Shown piece by piece: positions 2,380-32,365 of a stretch of 44,581 nt of DNA. Each line of letters begins with the position of its first letter. Position 1 is the first letter of the stretch. The stretch comes from Escherichia phage vB_EcoS-K1_SXAU_B4, in sequence record OQ696342.1. One strand, written 5' to 3'. The translations under genes and the position numbers were made by a program. The notes below the pieces were generated by a model that saw only the letters and a program-made list of their open reading frames with translations, did not search any database and had not been told where the DNA came from.

Positions 2380-2939
2380 GCAGTTACGGCAGCCGCTTGA
2401 GGGTATACACCGCCGAAGTCACTCCCGGCGCTATCCCGCATAATCTGAACGGCAAACGTCTGGCCTGCGGTCGGGTTAATAACGACGCGGGACTCAATCG
2501 GGATCGTCATGTCAGCGCTTACCAGTTTTGTGGCAGCGGGCGAGCCGTACTGAGCACCGTTGATGAGGATGCGTGATAGCAGGATGGACGTCCCGCTAGC
2601 ACCAGTGCGTCCAGCCTGTAACTTGATGCGCACGGCGTAGTTACCCGCTGTGTTGAACGTAACCAGCCCCGCAGCATTAATCATTACTGGGTCAGATGCG
2701 CCCCCCTGAGCAGAGCCGAAAGTTAACTGCAATGCCGTATCTGTCGCAGTGGGCGCTTGTATCACGGTCGACGCGGCACGGAGAACTTCAACCTCTTTCA
2801 CCCCGTGAGTGGCGTAAATAGGTGAGTCCGCCATCTGCGTCATTACCTCGCGCAGTGCTGCTGGAGTAATAAGTCCGGTAGTGTTATCGGGAAGATTTGC
2901 TCCAATAAGGGTAAACATCTCTGTTTTAGTCTTCGCCAT
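2325..2939 (-). CDS. Structural (neck/head completion) protein, hypothetical
   Basis: 204 aa ORF in the structural operon. Confidence 0.5.
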   Translation of the reverse strand: MAKTKTEMFTLIGANLPDNTTGLITPAALREVMTQMADSPIYATHGVKEVEVLRAASTVIQAPTATDTALQLTFGSAQGGASDPVMINAAGLVTFNTAGNYAVRIKLQAGRTGASGTSILLSRILINGAQYGSPAATKLVSADMTIPIESRVVINPTAGQTFAVQIMRDSAGSDFGGVYPQAAAVTAWGTAPSALLVISRLEAA

Positions 2940-2941
2940 TT

Positions 2942-3454
2942 TTAGCCCCGGTACACGTTAAACGAGAAGCCATTATTAAGTCCGCCGCACAGTAACGGGC
3001 GTAAAGCGTCGTCCGCAGCGGTGATCGAGGTCGTAGCGCCACTGTTGCCGTTGTTGAAGTAGGTCACTGTCACCGCGCCTTCTACGCGCTCGGTCTGCAC
3101 GGAGCGACCGTCCGAGTTAGCCCTCACCTCCGTACCTGAGCCATATGTAACGGCGGCGATTACCTGCGCAAGAATCACCTGCTTCGGGATGACATTGTTC
3201 ACTACAGGGAACCCGTTTAGCATTACGCCAGTGCGCGGGTACGCAAGAGACTGTTCGGCGGATACACGACGACCGCACATCTGCGGTTCTGCAAGCCCGA
3301 CATAAGTAGCGCCGTTGCGCAGGGCCACTTCCGCGGCGGTATCGTCTTCCGGTAGCTCAAGGCCATAATTAGCCGCTAACGCGCGGGCGTCAGCCAGACT
3401 AATGTAACTGTCGGCGCCAGGTACTATTGACCCATCTTCCACGATTAGCGGCAT
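2942..3454 (-). CDS. Structural protein, hypothetical
   Basis: 170 aa ORF in the structural operon. Confidence 0.5.
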   Translation of the reverse strand: MPLIVEDGSIVPGADSYISLADARALAANYGLELPEDDTAAEVALRNGATYVGLAEPQMCGRRVSAEQSLAYPRTGVMLNGFPVVNNVIPKQVILAQVIAAVTYGSGTEVRANSDGRSVQTERVEGAVTVTYFNNGNSGATTSITAADDALRPLLCGGLNNGFSFNVYRG

Positions 3455-4073: not shown

Positions 4074-5129
4074 TTAACCTTGAGACCCTACACCAGTTAC
4101 CAGGAAGGCAATCGGTACATGCTTACGGTCAACAACGCGGTTCCAGTTGGAGGCATTCGCCAGGTCCTGCCAGGAAGCGGAGCGCGGGGTAGTCTCGGTG
4201 CCGTTGCCGGTGATTACCGCGCTGGTGAAGCTGTAGCCCAGTGGGTGCAGCAACCAGGTCTTACGGGTCCACAGGGTTTCTACGCCGCCGCCGTTGCCGC
4301 GGGACGCTTCACGATCGTATTCCAGCGGGTTGGACGGAGAACCTTCACCGTAACCGATAGCGCCGTTGCCGAAGATGATGGAGATGAACTTACGGCTTGA
4401 GCCGGTGCCAACTACGGTCATGCTGTCGTCAACAATCACGCGGTAGCCCTGGTAGGTGGCGAACAGGGTGTCGTTGTCAGCGTTCTTGATGAAGTCAATA
4501 AGCTGCTGCTTACGGGCCTGCGCATAAACGAAGCTGTGCATCGCGATAGCACCCAGCACTTCACCACCGTTGCCCATCAGAGCATCACCCATAGTCTGGG
4601 TAGCGTCGATGAACGCACCTGCGTCGAAGCCCAGAGAAGCAGACACGTCGATAACCATATCGTTCTGCGTATGGTATTCATCGGTAGTGGCTACGTTGTC
4701 GTTGTACAGCCCGAGCGCGGTAGCAATCAGACGGCGTTGCGCCTGGCGCTGCCAGAAGTTATCCAGACGGGCCGCTACGGATTTCAGCGGGTCTTGGCGG
4801 GTAAGTTCAACAGTCAGGTCCGCCTGACCGAAACCTTCGTTCAGGTAGGCAACGCGGGCCATCATCTCACCGGTCTGCACATTACGCAGGGTAGCGATGT
4901 CCTGGTATACATCGTTCGAGTAGTTAGGCTCAATAGAAGTATCAATCGCTTTCCAGAAAGGAATGTTGGCGATGTTGGACGGGCCGCGAGCAATCTCGGC
5001 AGCGTATGGGGTCGGGGTCAGAATACCGGACTGGAAGAACGCGGTTTTTTCTACCGGGTCCTCGGTCATATAAGACGCCAGGACCGGGATGTTGCCAGTT
5101 ACGATATCGCCGATAGTGGTAATTGCCAT
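4074..5129 (-). CDS. Major capsid protein
   Basis: 351 aa, directly after the scaffold gene; terminator-like hairpin downstream; assigned by position and size. Confidence 0.75.
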   Translation of the reverse strand: MAITTIGDIVTGNIPVLASYMTEDPVEKTAFFQSGILTPTPYAAEIARGPSNIANIPFWKAIDTSIEPNYSNDVYQDIATLRNVQTGEMMARVAYLNEGFGQADLTVELTRQDPLKSVAARLDNFWQRQAQRRLIATALGLYNDNVATTDEYHTQNDMVIDVSASLGFDAGAFIDATQTMGDALMGNGGEVLGAIAMHSFVYAQARKQQLIDFIKNADNDTLFATYQGYRVIVDDSMTVVGTGSSRKFISIIFGNGAIGYGEGSPSNPLEYDREASRGNGGGVETLWTRKTWLLHPLGYSFTSAVITGNGTETTPRSASWQDLANASNWNRVVDRKHVPIAFLVTGVGSQG

Positions 5130-5131
5130 TA

Positions 5132-5887
5132 TTATTTCCTCAGGGCTTTAAGTTGCCGTTCAAATTCGGCAGGGTTCGATTTATACAGAGCTAAACGCTC
5201 CGCTTCACTCATGTCTTTAAACGCTGGTGCGGCCCCGCCGCCTTTGCTACCGGAAGCCCCGCCGCCGGAAGCTGCATTTGCTTTAATCAAATGCGAAAAC
5301 GCTTTGTGTTCACGCAGGTATTTGCGGAACTGTTCCGGGTCAGTTGTGATTACATTGCCATCTGCGCCAACAAACTTAGTAACCACGTCATCACCTTCGA
5401 ACTCAGTCTTAACGAACGGAGCAAGGATGTCCACTGCTTCCGGGGTAATAAAGTCACCTGCGAAAGAGCCTAACACCGCTTTACGTTCGCTGCCGAGGAT
5501 GCGCTCTGCCATTCTGGAGATGCGGCCATCTTTCTCGGCTAACACCGGGTCATACTGGCTACGAATCGTTTTTTCGAACTCATCCATCTTACCAGCGGCT
5601 TTTAACGCCTCCTGGTGTGCGCGCTGCCGTTCTTCTTCGGCCTCTTTTGCTTTACGAGCGGCTTCTTTCTTCTCCGCCAGCAATGCTTCCTGATTAGCCT
5701 TAAGCCCGGCCACTTCTTTCTCAATCAGTGCCTGAACTTCTTCAGCGGTGAACATTTTCGGCGCATCACCGCCGCCAGATTTATCTTCTGCCCCAGCTTC
5801 TTCCCGGAACGGATAACGTAAAAAACGATTCATAGTCAGTATGTCCCCTGGACGTTGGAACCCGGGCCACCCGGATTTACATGTCAA
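5132..5887 (-). CDS. Scaffolding protein
   Basis: 251 aa, charged and coiled-coil-like (EKKEAARKAKEAEEERQRAHQEALK), upstream of the capsid gene; true start may be the internal MNRFLRYPF. Confidence 0.6.
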   Translation of the reverse strand: MTCKSGWPGFQRPGDILTMNRFLRYPFREEAGAEDKSGGGDAPKMFTAEEVQALIEKEVAGLKANQEALLAEKKEAARKAKEAEEERQRAHQEALKAAGKMDEFEKTIRSQYDPVLAEKDGRISRMAERILGSERKAVLGSFAGDFITPEAVDILAPFVKTEFEGDDVVTKFVGADGNVITTDPEQFRKYLREHKAFSHLIKANAASGGGASGSKGGGAAPAFKDMSEAERLALYKSNPAEFERQLKALRK

Positions 5888-26170: not shown

Positions 26171-29100
26171 ATGAGTTACCTGTTCTTAGACTTTGAAACA
26201 TTCTCCGAAGCCGATTTAAAGAAAGTTGGCTCCTACGCTTACGCCGAACACCCGACTACAGAAGTGCTTATCTGTACCTATGCTTTTGATGACGAGCCTG
26301 TGCAGGTATGGGATTGCACCAACGGCAGCGACATGCCGGGGGATTTGCACCGCGCCTTGCGCCGCCTGGTTAAGCCAAACAGTCGCATCAAGATGGTGTG
26401 GCACAACGGCTCAATGTTCGATCGCCTAATCATGAAACACTGCTGGGGCTTTGATATTCCGGTAAGCAACACCATCGATACGATGATTTGGGCGTTTCGT
26501 CACGCGCTGCCTGGTTCACTTGATGCGTTGTGTGAAGTGCTGGGGGTATCTGCTGACAACGCGAAGGATAAACGCGGCAAGGCGCTGATTCAGCGTTTCT
26601 CTAAACCGACGCCGAAGAACTACAAAATACGCCGCTACACCGCCGAAACACACCCGGACGAGTGGGCGCTGTTCATCAAGTACGCTGTGAGCGACATCAC
26701 TGCGATGCGTGAAGTCTTCCATAAGCTGCCGCGTTGGGGTAACTCAGAGTTCGAGGACCGTGTACTGGAACTGGACCAGTTAATCAATGACCGTGGGTTT
26801 AAGGTTGACGTGGCACTGGCGGAAGCCGCGATTGAAGCCGTGGAGAAACACAAAGCGAAGTTACAGGAAGAAGCCCAACGCAAATACGGCGGCTCGCTTA
26901 CCGGTAAAGACTTCCTTCCTATTCTGCGTGAACTGGCCCCAGCGCACCGAATCCACAACGCGCAGAAGTCGACACTGAATGACCTGCTGGCGGATGATGA
27001 TTTACCTGACGACGCCCGCACTATTATCGAAATGCGCCTCGGGGCCGCGTCCACAGCGTCAACGAAATATACACCGCTGCTGCTGGGCCGCTCTTCGGAC
27101 GACCGCCGTCGTGGTTGCTTGCAGTACGGCGGGGCAAAACGCACTCTGCGATGGGCCGGTAAAGGCTTCCAGCCGCAGAACCTCGCGCGCGGGTACTATC
27201 ACGATGACGAACTGGATAAAGGCATTTCAGCGTTACTTAAGGGTCGTGCGCATCGCCGTTTCGATGTAGCCAAGCTAACGGCATCGACGGTTCGTAGCTG
27301 CATCATTCCGGAAGCAGGACATAAGTTTGTCGTCGCCGATTACTCGAACGTTGAAGGCCGGGGGCTTGCGTGGCTGGCGGGTGAAGAAACCGCGCTTGAT
27401 ACTTTCCGCGCCGGGTTGGATATTTATTGCGTAACCGCAGGTAAGATGTTTGGCATGGACCCAGACGACATTAAGAAAGAACGTAAAGACTTGCGCCAGA
27501 TTGGTAAAGCCTGCCTTCACCGCCATACCCAAGTTTTGACCGATGGCGGATTTAAGGATATTATGGCGGTCACATCGACAGATAAAGTATGGAGTGGTGA
27601 AAAATGGGTGAATACAAAAGGCGCGCACCTTATGGGGTGGAAACCGGTAATAAATGTGGACGGGGTGCTAATGACCGAAGACCACAAAATCTTGGCGCAT
27701 TCCTGGAAGCAGGCAAAGCAACTCGCTTCAAACAGATATATGATGGGCCTCGCCCTGGAGAGAGGTATGGACGCTTGGTTATCCTGCGCGAGTTACCAAA
27801 ACGACAAGGCCAAAGACAACTACTCGTCCAATGTGATTGCGGAGAGATGCCAGGGCGGGTCTATTATGACAACGTCAGAGCGGGTAAAACCACTCAATGC
27901 AACCGCTGCGCCCTTGAAGCAACAAAAAAATATCGTAAACAGTATTTCTGCTACGAAGACGCAATGCCGGATGATGCGCACAGAACGCGATTACTCAACC
28001 GGCTGTCAGCGGCGATCACGCGAACAACAAGCCCCAGGGATAAGGGTTATAAAAACTATGGGGCAAGAGGCATCACGGTATTCGACCAGTGGAGGACTGA
28101 TAAAAGGTCTTTTCTTAGATATGTTCAAACTCTGGAAGGCTGGGATGACCCGAACCTCGAAATGGATAGAATCGACACAGACGGTAACTACGAACCTGGA
28201 AACATTCGGTTTGTCAGCCGTTCTGAAAACTGCCGAAACAGACGGCAAATACCCGAGCTTCAACGAAAGTATGATGCAGCCGTTGCCCGCATTGCTGAAC
28301 TTGAGCGGGAAATTAACCTACTGCGAGCCGGTGTACGACCTGATTGATGTGGAAGACGGCAACCGTTTTCTTATAGCCTCAGACTCTGGCTTTCTTGTGG
28401 CGCATAACTGCGAGCTTGGCCTCGGCTACGAGGGTGGCGTCGGGGCGTTCGTTCAGTTTGCTAAAAACTTAGGTCTCGACCTTATTGAGATGGCAAAAAC
28501 AATGGACGGGACTTTCCCCGACCACATCTGGGCTGCTACCGCACGTGGGTATGAGTGGGCGCGTATTCAGGAAGCAAAGCGGCCACCACATCCAGGTGAA
28601 AAGGACGACCGACCATCGTATATTCTGGACAAGAAAGTGTGGCGCACATGTGACGCAATCAAGCGTATGTGGCGCGAGTCACACCCCGAAACAGTAGCGT
28701 TCTGGCGCGACCTTAAAGACGGAATTTTAGCCGCTGTTCGTAATCCTGGTCGTGAATTTTGGGCGGGAGCGCACTTGCGCGGGAATGGGGAAAGGGCTAT
28801 CCGCATATGGCGCACTGTAGAATTTGATTCATCCGGCAGGAAGGTTCCAGGTTGGTGGTTGTGTGTGGAGTTGCCGTCAGGCCGCATCCTCTCGTATCCG
28901 GGAATCGGCGTTAGTGTGACAAAGGAAACAGACGAAGACGGACGAGTAAACACGAATGTGCGAATCAAGTATCAGGGTGAAAACCAGTTAACCCGCCAAT
29001 GGACTACCCTGTACACCCACGGCGGCAAAGCCTGCGAAAACATTGTTCAGGCGCTGTGCCGTGATTTACTCGCATATGCAATGATTAATGTTGAGGGTGG

Positions 29101-29269
29101 CGGGTATCCCATCGTGCTTTCTGTACACGATGAACTGGTGTGCGAAACTCCAGACACACCGGAATACAATGTCGCAGAGCTTGAGCGGTTGATGTGCGCG
29201 TTGCCCGAGTGGGCAGAAGGCTTCCCTCTTGTAGCGGAAGGGCAGGAGTTAAAACGCTATGCTAAGTAA
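26171..29269 (+). CDS. Family A DNA polymerase (3'-5' exonuclease plus polymerase domains) interrupted by an in-frame intein at 27512..28408
   Basis: Exo motifs DFETFS, HNGSMFD, YAVSDI; Pol motif A VVADYSNVEGRGLAW; motif B RQIGKA|C...|CELGLGYEGG split by the intein; motif C SVHDELV. Confidence 0.9.
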   Translation: MSYLFLDFETFSEADLKKVGSYAYAEHPTTEVLICTYAFDDEPVQVWDCTNGSDMPGDLHRALRRLVKPNSRIKMVWHNGSMFDRLIMKHCWGFDIPVSNTIDTMIWAFRHALPGSLDALCEVLGVSADNAKDKRGKALIQRFSKPTPKNYKIRRYTAETHPDEWALFIKYAVSDITAMREVFHKLPRWGNSEFEDRVLELDQLINDRGFKVDVALAEAAIEAVEKHKAKLQEEAQRKYGGSLTGKDFLPILRELAPAHRIHNAQKSTLNDLLADDDLPDDARTIIEMRLGAASTASTKYTPLLLGRSSDDRRRGCLQYGGAKRTLRWAGKGFQPQNLARGYYHDDELDKGISALLKGRAHRRFDVAKLTASTVRSCIIPEAGHKFVVADYSNVEGRGLAWLAGEETALDTFRAGLDIYCVTAGKMFGMDPDDIKKERKDLRQIGKACLHRHTQVLTDGGFKDIMAVTSTDKVWSGEKWVNTKGAHLMGWKPVINVDGVLMTEDHKILAHSWKQAKQLASNRYMMGLALERGMDAWLSCASYQNDKAKDNYSSNVIAERCQGGSIMTTSERVKPLNATAAPLKQQKNIVNSISATKTQCRMMRTERDYSTGCQRRSREQQAPGIRVIKTMGQEASRYSTSGGLIKGLFLDMFKLWKAGMTRTSKWIESTQTVTTNLETFGLSAVLKTAETDGKYPSFNESMMQPLPALLNLSGKLTYCEPVYDLIDVEDGNRFLIASDSGFLVAHNCELGLGYEGGVGAFVQFAKNLGLDLIEMAKTMDGTFPDHIWAATARGYEWARIQEAKRPPHPGEKDDRPSYILDKKVWRTCDAIKRMWRESHPETVAFWRDLKDGILAAVRNPGREFWAGAHLRGNGERAIRIWRTVEFDSSGRKVPGWWLCVELPSGRILSYPGIGVSVTKETDEDGRVNTNVRIKYQGENQLTRQWTTLYTHGGKACENIVQALCRDLLAYAMINVEGGGYPIVLSVHDELVCETPDTPEYNVAELERLMCALPEWAEGFPLVAEGQELKRYAK
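27512..28408 (+). mobile_element. Intein (299 codons) inserted in polymerase motif B
   Basis: Block A CLHRHTQVLTDGGFKDI, block B VLMTEDHKIL, blocks F/G VYDLIDVEDGNRFLIASDSGFLVAHN followed by Cys+1; the in-frame central part has no recognisable endonuclease motif. Confidence 0.8.
27604..28347 (+). CDS. HNH endonuclease (HNH_3-like) encoded in an alternative frame, nested entirely inside the intein
   Basis: Own RBS GGAG (27590..27593) and ATG 27604 just after an in-frame stop; Cys cluster CDCG...QCNRC and HNH core NYGARGITVFDQW...LEMDRIDTDGNYEPGNIRFVSRSENCRNRR. Confidence 0.7.
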   Translation: MGEYKRRAPYGVETGNKCGRGANDRRPQNLGAFLEAGKATRFKQIYDGPRPGERYGRLVILRELPKRQGQRQLLVQCDCGEMPGRVYYDNVRAGKTTQCNRCALEATKKYRKQYFCYEDAMPDDAHRTRLLNRLSAAITRTTSPRDKGYKNYGARGITVFDQWRTDKRSFLRYVQTLEGWDDPNLEMDRIDTDGNYEPGNIRFVSRSENCRNRRQIPELQRKYDAAVARIAELEREINLLRAGVRPD

Positions 29270-29390
29270 ACTGATTATCGCGATACTGGCGGGATTCGCC
29301 GCCGGTGTCTACTGTCACGAGGGTCAATACGGCATGATTGCCGCTGTATTGGGCATGTTCATCGCAATTTATCTGTGGGTGCTGGAATGA
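29259..29390 (+). CDS. Small membrane protein (43 aa)
   Basis: Manually found; overlaps the polymerase stop; hydrophobic MLSKLIIAILAGFAAGV...; below the ORF-track cutoff. Confidence 0.35.
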   Translation: MLSKLIIAILAGFAAGVYCHEGQYGMIAAVLGMFIAIYLWVLE

Positions 29391-29476
29391 AAATTTACTG
29401 GTTCTACGAAGAAGACTGCCGACTCTGCCCGCGCTGCGGTATTGAACATACGAAACGTGAGGGGTGCGTATTATGA
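29387..29476 (+). CDS. Small zinc-ribbon peptide (29 aa)
   Basis: ATGA coupling; DCRLCPRCG...C cysteines. Confidence 0.3.
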   Translation: MKIYWFYEEDCRLCPRCGIEHTKREGCVL

Positions 29477-29625
29477 CAATGTTTGTATTTTGGACGATAG
29501 CGACCATGCTCGCACTGTTACTTGGTGCAGGAATAGCTGCGATGTTCTGTTATGGCCTGTTCTTTAAGTTTGTCGGTGTTGCCGTTCTCAGTGGAGCTTT
29601 CCTTACTTGGATTCTGCGCTCATGA
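29473..29625 (+). CDS. Small membrane protein (50 aa)
   Basis: ATGA coupling on both ends; two hydrophobic segments. Confidence 0.35.
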   Translation: MTMFVFWTIATMLALLLGAGIAAMFCYGLFFKFVGVAVLSGAFLTWILRS

Positions 29626-29935: not shown

Positions 29936-30127
29936 ATGAAACACGAATATGACCGCAAACCAGCCCGTGACATCGTACCTGGCGACATGATTTTCAACGT
30001 TAAGACCCGCCGCCCTGTTGCCGTTGATACAGTGTTTGTAGAGTCGAACGGTAAACTGGTTATCGAAGATGTAACTGGTAATGTTACAGCGTTCGGGCGT
30101 AAAGAGCTGGTGCTGGTGGCAAAATGA
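29936..30127 (+). CDS. Hypothetical protein
   Basis: 63 aa ORF. Confidence 0.45.
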   Translation: MKHEYDRKPARDIVPGDMIFNVKTRRPVAVDTVFVESNGKLVIEDVTGNVTAFGRKELVLVAK

Positions 30128-30904
30128 ACTATTACAACGAATGGGATAAGGGCGCAGCCGCGTGGCTGCGCGAATTAATAAAACAGGGCCACATACCTTT
30201 TGGAGTTGTAGATGAAAGAAGCATTACCGAAGTTAAGCCAGAAGACCTCGACGGGTTCACCCAGTGTCATTTTTTCGCTGGTATCGGCGGCTGGCCTCTC
30301 GCGCTCAGACTTGCGGGAGTTTCGGAAGACACGCCTTGCTGGACGGGAAGCCCGCCTTGCCAACCGTTTAGTGCGGCAGGAAAGCAACTCGGACAGTTCG
30401 ACCCTAGACACCTCGCGCCCGTATTCCTCGACCTCATCAGCGAGTGCCGCCCTCCAGTCCTCTTTGGGGAGCAGGTTGCGCCAGCAATTGCAAAATCGTG
30501 GATGTGCGATTTACAAACTCACCTGGAAGGAGAAGACTACGCCGTCGGGTTTGCTGTACTCCCAGCTTGTAGCGTCGGCGCACCGCACAAAAGAGAACGA
30601 CTGTTCTTTGGTGCGTACAACCTGGCCAACACCGACAGCGAACGACTACAGGGGGAGCGGAGAGACAGTGATTCGCAAGGACGGGAAGGACAGGACATTC
30701 GACAGGCTGGACTACTCGACGGAGCAGGGTCTGAAAATAATACAACCTATTCGCATCACGGCTTCTGGTCAGATGCTGACTGGCTCGGATGCCGGGATGG
30801 AAAATTCAGGCCGGTTGAACCCGGCACATTCCCGCTGGCTAATGGGATTCCCGCCAGAGTGTGACGATTGCGCGGTTACGGCAATGCCATCATCCCGCAA
30901 GTAG
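30124..30904 (+). pseudogene. DNA (cytosine-5)-methyltransferase with an apparent +1 frameshift near 30605..30625
   Basis: N-terminal motifs in the 30124 frame: FAGIGG (I), PCQPFS (IV), FGEQV (ENV-like, VI), PHKRERLFFG (VIII). C-terminal motifs WPTPTANDYRG and LNPAHSRWLMGFP sit in the +1 frame (ORF 30212..30904). Confidence 0.6.
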
Positions 30905-30940: not shown

Positions 30941-32365
30941 ATGAGTAAGTTTCAAAGGCGCGAGTACCAGAAGCTCATGACCTCATTCATGTTGCGGCAC
31001 CATCGCTGTAATATTTGGGCAAGCATGGGTGCCGGGAAGACTGGCAGCGTACTGTGGGCTTTAAACCGCCTGTTCCGCAACGGGCAACTTACGGACGACG
31101 ACCGCGTGTTAATACTCGCCCCGCTGCGCGTTGCGTCCGGCACATGGCCAGCAGAACAAGAGAAATGGCAATTCCCGTGTCTGAATGTCGTAGATGCGAC
31201 AGGTTCGGAGAAACGCCGCATCGCGGCGCTGGAGTCAGACGCTAACGTTGTGTGCACGAACTACGAAGTTATTGAATGGCTGATTGATTACTACGGCAAA
31301 GACGACTGGCCTTTTACGGTTATTGTTGCCGACGAGAGCACGAAGCTAAAGTCATTCCGTAGCCGTTCGGGCGGTAGTAAGAGGGCAAAGGCTCTTAGCA
31401 AAGTGGCGTTCGGTAGGGTTAAGCGTTTCATCAACCTTACGGGTACGCCATCGCCAAACGGCCTCAAAGACTTGTGGGGGCAGAACTGGTTTATCGACGC
31501 CGGCGAGCGCCTCGGGTCTTCATACACGGCATTCACTGACCGCTGGTTTAACTCGGTACAGAAAGGCAAATCGGCTATGGCGCGGGAGTATCACGCCCGC
31601 CCTGGTGCGGATAATGAAATTCACCAGAAGATGAAGGACATTAGTCTCACGATTGACGCTGCCGAGTGGTTCGGTTGTGAAGCGCCGATTATCGTACCGG
31701 TTGAAATTGACCTGCCGAAGAAAGCGCGTCAGGCGTACATCGATATGGAGGAAAAGTTATTCGCGGAACTGGAGAGTGGAGAAGTTGAAGCGGCTAACGC
31801 GGCGGCGAAGACGTCGAAGTGCTTGCAGATTGCATCCGGCGCCGTGTATGTTTCGGGACCAGACGGCGAAGCAACGAAAGACTGGGAGAAAGTGCACGAC
31901 ACGAAACTTGATGCGCTTGAGTCCATTGTTGAGGAGTTACAAGGCGCACCGTTGCTGGTGGCCTATCAGTTTAAGCATGAACTGGAGCGCATCCTGAAAC
32001 GTTTCCCGCAGGCACAGTCGTTTGCCAAAGGTGCTAAGGGTAATAAGCAGATGGAAGCGTGGAACCGTGGTGAGATACCTATGCTTCTGATACACCCGGC
32101 CTCCGCGGGCCACGGGCTGTCGCTACAACACGGCGGGCATCACATGGCTTTTATGAGTCAGGGGTGGAACCTGGAGCATTATCTGCAGGTTATCGAGCGT
32201 ATAGGCCCAGTAAGGCAGATGCAATCCGGATACAAACGGTCTGTATTCATTTATCAAATAATAGCCCGAGATACTCTTGATGAAGTTGTTGCCGCGCGTA
32301 CCGACGAGAAAAAATCGGTACAGGAAGAGTTGCTTAATTACATGAAGAGACGAGGTAAGAAATGA
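30941..32365 (+). CDS. SF2 (SNF2/DEAD-like) helicase
   Basis: 474 aa; Walker A GAGKTG, DExx box VADESTKL, C-terminal helicase region. Confidence 0.8.
   Translation: MSKFQRREYQKLMTSFMLRHHRCNIWASMGAGKTGSVLWALNRLFRNGQLTDDDRVLILAPLRVASGTWPAEQEKWQFPCLNVVDATGSEKRRIAALESDANVVCTNYEVIEWLIDYYGKDDWPFTVIVADESTKLKSFRSRSGGSKRAKALSKVAFGRVKRFINLTGTPSPNGLKDLWGQNWFIDAGERLGSSYTAFTDRWFNSVQKGKSAMAREYHARPGADNEIHQKMKDISLTIDAAEWFGCEAPIIVPVEIDLPKKARQAYIDMEEKLFAELESGEVEAANAAAKTSKCLQIASGAVYVSGPDGEATKDWEKVHDTKLDALESIVEELQGAPLLVAYQFKHELERILKRFPQAQSFAKGAKGNKQMEAWNRGEIPMLLIHPASAGHGLSLQHGGHHMAFMSQGWNLEHYLQVIERIGPVRQMQSGYKRSVFIYQIIARDTLDEVVAARTDEKKSVQEELLNYMKRRGKK

Follow-up and report, generated by a model that had tools for sequence, protein, structure and literature searches.

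A DNA polymerase intein of Escherichia phage vB_EcoS-K1_SXAU_B4 and the HNH-like gene nested out of frame within it

The family A DNA polymerase gene of Escherichia phage vB_EcoS-K1_SXAU_B4 (sequence record OQ696342.1) is a single open reading frame (ORF) whose motif B is interrupted by an insert that reads as a class-1 intein, and the DNA of this intein also holds a second gene, on the same strand and in another frame, for an HNH-like protein. The window, that is, the whole stretch of 44,581 nucleotides that was analysed, is the genome of a Guernseyvirinae siphophage, and the region under study is 96.7% identical to that of Salmonella phage GRNsp50 and about 96% identical to that of SETP3. 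In what follows the frame of the polymerase is called the Pol frame, positions are those of the window unless they are given as locus coordinates, and a caret in a motif marks the point of insertion.

The polymerase gene and its intein

The host gene (Table 1) matches Pfam DNA_pol_A (E=3.5e-16) as well as PHROG DNA polymerase families, and the records of relatives label it 'intein-containing DNA polymerase precursor'. An initial annotation made from the letters of the window had described it as one continuous frame across the insert. The ORF list confirms this with 1032 codons, and the coordinates given in that annotation for the polymerase ORF, the 299-codon insert, the nested ORF and the stop at 27598 all proved exact when checked against the sequence and its ORFs. 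The insert begins with CLHRHTQVLTDGG, holds the motif TEDH, ends with VYDLIDVEDGNRFLIASDSGFLVAHN and is followed by CELGLGYEGG. Raoultella phage RP180 and Salmonella phage Shelanagig, which lack the intein, have exactly 897 bp fewer and read RQIGKA^CELGLGYEGG, the sequence of the joined exteins. After splicing, the polymerase of the window would measure 733 amino acids. In some relatives, e.g. vB_SenS-Ent2, the deposited annotation 'intein, encoding splicing domains' stands at the same position.

The comparison with relatives rests on 80 IMG/VR loci fetched with a family alignment, together with phage and metagenome loci, giving 86 usable loci and 55 non-redundant lineages. Residues C1, T55, H58 (the TxxH of block B), D276, H298 and N299 are invariant among the 55 non-redundant homologues. 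In block A, Cys1 is present in every lineage and T6, V8 and G13 are conserved; at the other end the terminal HN is found in 55/55, and the +1 residue is Cys in 54 and Ser in one.

Curated family models did not recognise the splicing domain. A Pfam scan of the Pol-frame protein of the window gave no Hint or Intein_splicing match at E<=1; Pfam, NCBIfam and PADLOC scans of both frames returned no HNH or Hint family above threshold; and weak Pfam Vint matches were obtained for nine of the 55 intein homologues (best E=0.0084). A profile of the 55 non-redundant homologues, however, matches the Mtu RecA mini-intein (E=3e-4), the Neq polymerase split intein and the Spl DnaX mini-intein. The profile search proposed in the initial annotation therefore went against it as far as the curated Pfam intein and Hint models are concerned and in its favour once the homologues were pooled. 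Structure prediction gives the same picture as the pooled profile. With the 55-homologue alignment, AlphaFold assigns a predicted local distance difference test score (pLDDT) of 97-98 to intein residues 1-90, 81 to residues 91-100, and 94-97 to residues 271-299 of the C-lobe (80-97 over the whole lobe). When the intein model was compared with the PDB by Foldseek, the top 31 matches were all inteins or Hint domains, with probabilities up to 1.0, among them gp41-1, Ssp DnaB, Npu DnaE, Mtu RecA, Vint, BIL and Hedgehog. Mean pairwise conservation in the Pol frame is 0.31-0.59 at residues 1-90 and 0.43-0.65 at residues 271-299.

The invariant splice residues, the Hint fold and the exact empty site bear out the class-1 hallmarks that had been recognised in the initial annotation, and 27512..28408 is, as far as its sequence tells, a class-1 intein. 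From the invariance of the catalytic residues and the essential nature of the host gene we infer that the intein splices.

Table 1. Features of the polymerase locus in the window, with intein-less sites and nested ORFs of relatives.
Feature	Position	Strand	Remarks
Family A DNA polymerase precursor gene	26171..29269	+	1032 codons plus stop, one unbroken ORF (ORF list)
N-extein	26171..27511	+	part of the polymerase ORF
Predicted class-1 intein, 299 codons	27512..28408	+	placed in motif B between GKA and CELGLGYEGG
Hint N-lobe, intein residues 1-95, blocks A and B	27512..27796	+	AlphaFold pLDDT, Pol-frame conservation
Sigma-70-like promoter TTGACC, 17-nucleotide spacer, TATTAT	27536..27564	+	consensus scan; within intein block A codons
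Mini-ORF ATG GAG TGG TGA, in the nested frame upstream	27589..27600	+	sequence
Shine-Dalgarno-like GGAG (27591..27594) and start ATG (27604..27606) of the nested gene	27591..27606	+	sequence
Nested gene, 247 amino acids, Pol+2 (= -1) frame	27604..28347	+	inside intein DNA, same strand
Parts of the nested protein			leader, residues 1-49 (over the Hint N-lobe); core, residues 50-215; coiled-coil tail, residues 216-247
Pol-frame linker, intein residues about 96-264	27797..28303	+	open, unconserved, predicted disordered
Hint C-lobe, intein residues about 265-299, blocks F and G, HN end	28304..28408	+	pLDDT, conservation
C-extein	28409..29266	+	part of the polymerase ORF
Empty (intein-less) polymerase site			...CGCCAGATTGGTAAAGCC^TGCGAGCTTGGCCTCGGC...
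Empty site of RP180 and Shelanagig			...AGATTGGTAAAGCC^TGCGAGCTTGGCCTC...
APSE-1 nested ORF	2743..3393 (locus coordinates)		second polymerase site, nested frame Pol+1
Shewanella phage SFCi1 nested ORF	about 2520..3145 (locus coordinates)		second polymerase site, nested frame Pol+1
Streptococcus prophage Javan101 nested ORF	2384..3157 (locus coordinates)		near the motif-B site, nested frame Pol+1

Two reading frames over one stretch of DNA

Between the two Hint lobes the Pol frame runs through a linker that sits where the endonuclease domain of a canonical intein would. Its pLDDT is 35-58 (35-55 at residues about 105-255), with no secondary structure predicted past intein residue 103, its mean pairwise conservation is only 0.05-0.38 compared with 0.31-0.65 in the lobes, and a protein-family scan gave no match; by conservation, pLDDT and family scan alike, no endonuclease domain lies in frame between the lobes. 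The frame nevertheless stays open. A stop codon within 27512..28408, which the initial annotation had taken to be incompatible with its reading, occurs neither in the window nor in the insert of any of the 55 lineages, against 4.9 expected per locus (median P of no stops, 0.004), although the lineages share descent, which counts against their combined weight since combined P-values overstate independence and their product is no true probability. At 42-85% protein identity between lineages, synonymous sites have turned over many times. Further, when the 247-residue nested protein was re-encoded with synonymous codons, the Pol frame of the window remained free of stops in only 0.2-0.5% of trials, which excludes a frame left open by chance. 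The earlier description of the in-frame middle as lacking an endonuclease motif yet remaining open holds. The linker probably has no function of its own, the sole requirement placed on it being the absence of a stop codon.

The insert is carried by 162 of 275 phage records and is absent from roughly 110. In all 86 usable loci an intact nested ORF lies inside a family A polymerase ORF, in an insert with the ends Cys1...HN^C/S, and the nested frame is Pol+2 in 55 of the 55 non-redundant lineages, down to about 42% protein identity. Comparison with the polymerases of related phages, suggested in the initial annotation as a check, has therefore found the two-frame layout to be recurrent, both in the 162 phage records and across the lineages. 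The nested protein has 305 database homologues, nearly all of 230-260 amino acids, and the best 120 of the 305 span 169-268 amino acids. No canonical relative with the endonuclease in frame was found among these best 120 of 305 protein matches or in the 86 loci.

The two frames divide the insert between them. Conservation in the nested frame is low at residues 1-49, where it overlaps the Hint N-lobe, and rises to 0.44-0.69 across most of the core (residues 50-215), so that the nested profile mirrors that of the intein and conservation is handed over from one frame to the other; a short stretch, 27752..27781, is conserved in both. Among 14 distinct close alleles, the core has 37, 120 and 53 variable sites at the first, second and third Pol codon positions respectively. 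The second Pol position is the wobble position of the nested frame, whereas in the exteins and in those parts of Hint that lie outside the overlap the third Pol position varies most. Similarly, the core differs from that of SETP3 at seven sites, of which the nested frame reads seven as synonymous and none as non-synonymous and the Pol frame none and seven. AlphaFold models the nested protein with a mean pLDDT of 88, above 90 at residues 50-240 and low in the leader. Both frames are open, and the distribution of substitutions places each under its own selection, in agreement with the earlier proposal that the endonuclease-like protein comes from a gene of its own, overprinted on the intein in a different frame.

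The contigs behind most database copies of the nested protein measure only about 0.9-1.3 kb, and among the long contigs several stop at the element. On contigs of ~1 kb the polymerase ORF is truncated, as would be expected if gene callers favour the long polymerase ORF when it is complete and call the nested ORF only where it is not. The lengths and ends of these contigs suggest that assemblies break at the element, perhaps through presence/absence polymorphism. In Salmonella phage SS3e (NC_006940; 372..3472 in locus coordinates) the annotation divides the polymerase in two and places an 'HNH endonuclease' coding sequence (orf42, 268 amino acids) between the parts. The Pol frame is broken in this record, probably by frame errors in an old sequence, and it is the sole record seen in which annotators have named the nested gene.

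The signals that would allow the nested gene to be expressed on its own are written into codons of the Hint domain. Its start ATG consists of the last base of intein codon 31 and the TG of the codon for the conserved Trp32, and a second in-frame ATG, at 27589, is built likewise on the codon for the conserved Trp27. The latter is an alternative (+77) start with which the ORF begins in many relatives; in the window it is closed by a TGA (27598..27600) just upstream of the ORF. The initial annotation had reported a start ATG after this stop and a ribosome-binding site for it; the sequence has the ATG and, before it, a GGAG that resembles such a site. At the Trp32 start, 42 of the 55 lineages have ATG, 11 GTG and one TTG. 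The wobble base before Trp32 is A in 42/55 compared with 17.4 expected from extein usage for the same amino acids (p=1e-11), and the base before Trp27 is A, giving ATG, in 40/55 compared with 6.6 expected on the same basis (p=3e-25); most lineages without A at these start positions have GTG or TTG. A stop between the two starts, present in 14 of the 55 lineages including the window, leaves a mini-ORF of 3-4 codons just before the main ATG.

Upstream, at about 40 nucleotides from the nested start, the sigma-70-like promoter of the window matches the consensus at 10/12 positions. At the same fixed position the score is at least 9/12 in 33 of the 55 lineages, and the mean over the lineages is 8.11 compared with 6.62 under synonymous recoding (Wilcoxon p=7e-9). 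The codons concerned are biased accordingly: the conserved Leu9 is encoded by TTG in 30/47 (background 12.7%; p=4e-16) and Ile17 by the rare codon ATA in 22/47 (background 10.6%; p=4e-10). Collectively, the codon biases at the starts and in the promoter-like element point to separate transcription and translation of the nested gene, which would thus be translated independently of the polymerase.

The nested protein, its mobility and rival readings

The nested protein strongly matches PHROG families labelled HNH endonuclease, namely phrog_374 (E=7e-47) and also phrog_3377 and phrog_2081. It aligns with columns 158-355 of the phrog_374 profile, a Pfam-verified HNH_3 protein aligns with columns 325-410 of the same profile (E=1.7e-14), and a further match of the nested protein to a PHROG 'endonuclease VII' family is weak (E=2e-5). 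Members of the nested family share a zinc ribbon of four cysteines (C77, C79, C99 and C102) together with a helix bearing HRTRLLNRL, a YGGRGIxVxxxW module that forms a putative DNA-binding beta-sheet, and a strand-strand-helix unit (a putative HNH-like beta-beta-alpha motif), EMDR - IRFV - RSENCRN, which bears D188, R189, Y196, N200 and N212. The HNH-like motif occupies residues 186-214. Distant, free-standing relatives occur in Staphylococcus phage SA5, Bacillus phage Pascal and Erwinia phage Deimos-Minion; start and promoter-like signals of its own, and stand-alone relatives between phage genes, give the nested gene the features of a free-standing homing endonuclease gene. A different endonuclease gene lies just downstream of the polymerase in SETP3, where ORF37 (4674..5171, locus coordinates) encodes a free-standing protein of the HNH_3 plus AP2 type (Pfam HNH_3 E=3.7e-11); the equivalent position of the window, 29270..29600, contains no ORF of this size.

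The element was found in Jerseyvirus, Dhillonvirus, Sodalis phage SO-1, Pseudomonas phage MR14 and many uncultured viral contigs. Between the phage studied here and SETP3 the intein is 98% identical and the flanking 600 nucleotides 84% and 92%; between it and the Dhillonvirus Pubbukkers the intein is 83% identical and the flanks 73% and 68%. The patchy distribution and an intein identity above that of the flanks are indirect signs of homing into empty alleles. Further, APSE-1 and SFCi1 carry the pair at a second polymerase site and Javan101 near the motif-B site (Table 1). The nested ORF of SFCi1 is intact, with stops only upstream of it, and in APSE-1 GenBank annotates only the shorter P46 (2971..3393, locus coordinates). 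A homologous pair of Hint domain and nested gene at other sites and in other hosts implies that the pair has moved, and that the relative frame of its two parts is not constant.

Within motif B itself the insertion point shifts by about four residues between clades (GK[AVP]^C-ELxLG, GKVxELA^C-GYxGG and GKTTILG^C-GYxMG), which suggests drift of the site or retargeting of the element. The helicase gene of the window (30941..32365, 474 amino acids) has no intein, and the helicases of SETP3 (ORF34, from 5668 in locus coordinates), Ent2 and Shelanagig carry one of the LAGLIDADG type; the intein content of these phages is therefore mosaic.

Taken together, the locus is probably occupied by a two-gene mobile element whose genes share one stretch of DNA inside the polymerase gene, a reading in which we have considerable confidence. 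Ribosomes would read through the 299 intein codons, producing the N-lobe, an unstructured spacer of roughly 160-170 residues and the C-lobe; the two lobes would fold together and excise the intein by means of Cys1, TxxH, HN and Cys+1, restoring motif B of the polymerase. The nested gene, of the free-standing homing-endonuclease-like type, would be expressed alone from the promoter-like element, the Shine-Dalgarno-like sequence and the ATGs that occupy synonymous positions of the Hint N-lobe. Its product most likely recognises, and cuts or once cut, intein-less polymerase alleles of co-infecting phages, whereupon repair would copy intein and nested gene together. Such collaborative homing would have the intein render the insertion harmless and the nested gene render the element mobile.

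Several observations weigh against parts of this account. The nested protein has no Pfam or NCBIfam HNH match at E<=1, and searches of Pfam, NCBIfam and PDB sequences with the protein of the window, 18 relatives and three free-standing relatives gave no HNH match either. A profile of the nested family retrieved only spurious zinc-ribbon matches from PDB sequences, Foldseek found no match to the nested protein in the PDB, and an hhalign comparison of the family with one canonical HNH_3 protein (ORF37) was not significant. The position of the general-base His is taken by Arg189 in 121 of 121 aligned members (DRID or DRIN), and no His is universally conserved in the family. On the side of expression, some lineages have Shine-Dalgarno-like sequences that are weak or poorly spaced, and about 40% of lineages have no good promoter match. 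As for mobility, constraint instead of transfer could explain part of the higher identity of the intein relative to its flanks. The description of the nested protein as a clear HNH_3-type endonuclease must therefore be withdrawn: Pfam HNH models do not match it, its general-base His is an invariant Arg, and only the PHROG HNH families recognise it. It is better called HNH-like than HNH_3, and with the His absent and no curated HNH match its nuclease activity stays putative.

The same findings lend some weight to the view that the nested protein is expressed and selected but is no homing nuclease, serving instead as a DNA-binding regulator, as a nickase-less targeting factor that recruits nucleases, or as a factor that benefits the phage (e.g. 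in superinfection or replication control). Its zinc ribbon and putative DNA-binding YGGRGI module, together with its weak similarity to solved nucleases, would suit such a role as well as the invariant Arg and the lack of a universal His do, and purely selfish endonucleases do not usually keep one layout across evolutionary distances as great as these. We nevertheless consider this explanation unlikely. It does not account for the patchy distribution, the exact empty sites and the excess of intein over flank identity across genera; the same pair at the second polymerase site of APSE-1 and SFCi1 and in Javan101 implies mobility; and the free-standing relatives are placed in phage genomes in the manner of homing endonuclease genes. 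The loss of the His has a precedent in PacI, an HNH enzyme in which Tyr replaces the catalytic His.

It is very unlikely that the nested ORF has ceased to be a functional gene and is merely what is left, in decay, of a former in-frame endonuclease domain, so that only the mini-intein matters. Homing endonucleases are expected to decay once fixed, and the missing catalytic His and the lack of a Pfam HNH match could be taken in that sense. However, the ORF is intact at every usable locus and to 42% identity, its substitutions gather on its own wobble position, its core is conserved and confidently folded by AlphaFold, and its start codons and promoter-like element are under selection. Moreover, the Arg at the general-base position is shared by the free-standing relatives, which makes it a trait of the family and not a sign of decay.

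Programmed ribosomal frameshifting, by which a fraction of the ribosomes would produce a canonical Hint-HNH-Hint intein or a fusion of N-extein, Hint and HNH parts, has only a slender chance of being correct. The nested frame is the -1 frame of Pol, and in this phage a run of five A (GAAAAAT, 27599..27605) lies at the nested start. The run is not conserved in other lineages, however, no in-frame X XXY YYZ slippery heptamer is present there, and the local RNA fold is unremarkable (z=0.54). The stop at 27598 precedes the nested ORF, an open Pol frame would be needless if shifting led to an active polymerase, and the strong selection for ATG at two fixed positions points to initiation. Sequencing or assembly error, with two compensating indels that moved an in-frame HNH domain out of frame, had been named in the initial annotation as a way in which its reading could fail, and although the broken polymerase of SS3e shows that frame errors occur here in old records, the chance of it is practically nil given one layout at one offset in 162 phages sequenced independently in many laboratories and in 55 divergent lineages, a Pol frame free of stops far beyond expectation, and ATG starts selected at fixed positions.

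A broader version of the two-gene reading can be put forward tentatively and is open to more doubt. The Hint intein and the His-less HNH-like gene may form an ancient and widespread pair in fixed register, present in at least 290 viral contig stretches, in phages of Enterobacterales and Pseudomonas and in a Streptococcus prophage, with a promoter, a ribosome-binding region and two starts placed where the codons of the splicing domain are free to vary synonymously. In that case the nested protein would either follow a non-canonical chemistry in which Arg or Tyr stands in for His or be no nuclease at all, and the overprinted arrangement would represent a stable endpoint of evolution that gene callers systematically hide, and no brief stage between canonical and split inteins.

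In this element, intein and endonuclease gene are separate partners in a large natural system that is open to experiment, and Salmonella and E. coli phages with and without it are held in culture collections. It bears on the model of mobile intein origin in which splicing came first and the endonuclease invaded later, and on the formation of split inteins. As a natural mini-intein it tolerates a disordered insert of roughly 160 residues, and as a long dual-coding region in which one frame is selected only for openness it is useful for calibrating the detection of overlapping genes. The nested gene is missed by standard annotation and is consequently absent from the records of hundreds of phage genomes. 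If the His-less HNH-like protein does cut DNA, its catalysis would be of a new variant, and new site-specific nucleases could possibly be drawn from it.

A second pair of nested ORFs on the same strand of the window occupies 30124..30864 and 30212..30904 (+). A C5 cytosine methyltransferase ORF (246 amino acids; Pfam DNA_methylase E=1.7e-16) almost fully overlaps an ORF of 230 amino acids in another frame (WPTPTANDYRG...LNPAHSRWLMGFP), which has no Pfam match. Phage K1ind1 annotates both as coding sequences, as 'DNA methyltransferase' ORF29 (275 amino acids) and as ORF28 (231 amino acids, 'Mte8-like'). Either a methylase in two parts separated by a frameshift or a genuine overlapping gene could account for this pair.

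Comparison with known systems

As a class, the arrangement is already known. The remark in the initial annotation that it had not been described is superseded by two reports of 2025 (10.1101/2025.01.02.630785; PMC11855218) and by the annotation of P46 in APSE-1 in 1999. Gosselin, Arsenault and Gogarten (bioRxiv 10.1101/2025.01.02.630785) described actinophage inteins with the endonuclease in another frame or on the other strand, comprising antisense LAGLIDADG or VSR-like endonucleases and a same-strand 'frame 3' class that is endonuclease VII-like, and proposed that they arose when a free-standing endonuclease gene invaded an intein. The element described here resembles these inteins in its open and unstructured or disordered in-frame middle, in the endonuclease-type ORF that lies inside the intein DNA on the same strand, out of frame in 55/55 lineages while the host frame stays open, and in the origin by invasion that can be proposed for it. 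It differs in several respects. Their same-strand class matches T4 endonuclease VII at residues 1-67, whereas the nested protein has the HNH-like zinc ribbon, YGGRGI and DRID elements with its motif near the C-terminus, a distinction drawn from the descriptions. Their hosts are actinophages, whereas here they are phages of Enterobacterales and Pseudomonas, a Streptococcus prophage and uncultured viral contigs. Further, unlike in the actinophage inteins, the nested ORF here overlaps the splicing domain by about 65 codons, and Hint codons hold its promoter-like element and starts.

The out-of-frame HNH inserts of the ShiLan type, found in phage DNA methylases by Arsenault et al. 2025 (PMC11855218), are similar in that an HNH gene occupies the third frame of an insertion that is open in the host frame, with a patchy distribution consistent with homing. 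They lack a splicing domain and the host protein therefore retains the insert, whereas the Hint intein would be able to remove itself. The APSE-1 record of 1999 (GenBank AF157835) shows P46 within P45, its polymerase gene with an intein. In APSE-1 as in SFCi1, a family A polymerase holds a Hint domain and a nested HNH-like ORF that are both homologous to those described here. The insertion in these two phages lies near motif C (YGG(K/R)..^C...HN^C), the nested frame is Pol+1, and the nested ORF starts after block B, whereas here it starts inside the N-lobe.

In the literature searched, no paper discussing the P45/P46 arrangement of APSE-1 was found, nor any description of the Jerseyvirus or SETP3 arrangement, of the nested endonuclease-like family and its missing catalytic His, or of such an occurrence in phages of Gram-negative hosts or in a Streptococcus prophage. 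Likewise, no account was found there of the scale of the family, of how deep the conservation of its register goes, of the reach of the nested ORF into the splicing domain or of the embedded promoter and starts.

Canonical inteins with a LAGLIDADG or in-frame HNH endonuclease have in common with this one a Hint domain split at the same structural position by an insert of roughly 160-200 residues, and homing is presumed for both. They translate the endonuclease within the insert, whereas here the endonuclease-like protein would be a separate polypeptide. In the fractured genes of Dassa et al. 2009 (PMC2677866), split inteins surround free-standing endonuclease genes, with coding overlaps of 6-69 bp. 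These likewise place an endonuclease gene of the free-standing type between intein halves, but the host gene is broken there, whereas here a continuous ORF of 1032 codons leads one to expect splicing in cis. The suggestion in the initial annotation that the element is an intermediate on the way to split inteins is doubtful, since the same offset is kept to about 42% protein identity, which suggests that the state is stable and not transient.

A functional parallel is the collaborative homing of introns and free-standing endonucleases, e.g. mobE in nrdA (cited in PMC2677866) and cyanophage psbA. There, too, a self-splicing element renders the insertion harmless and a separate endonuclease gives mobility; the endonuclease gene lies adjacent to the intron, whereas in the polymerase gene described here it is overprinted on a protein intein.

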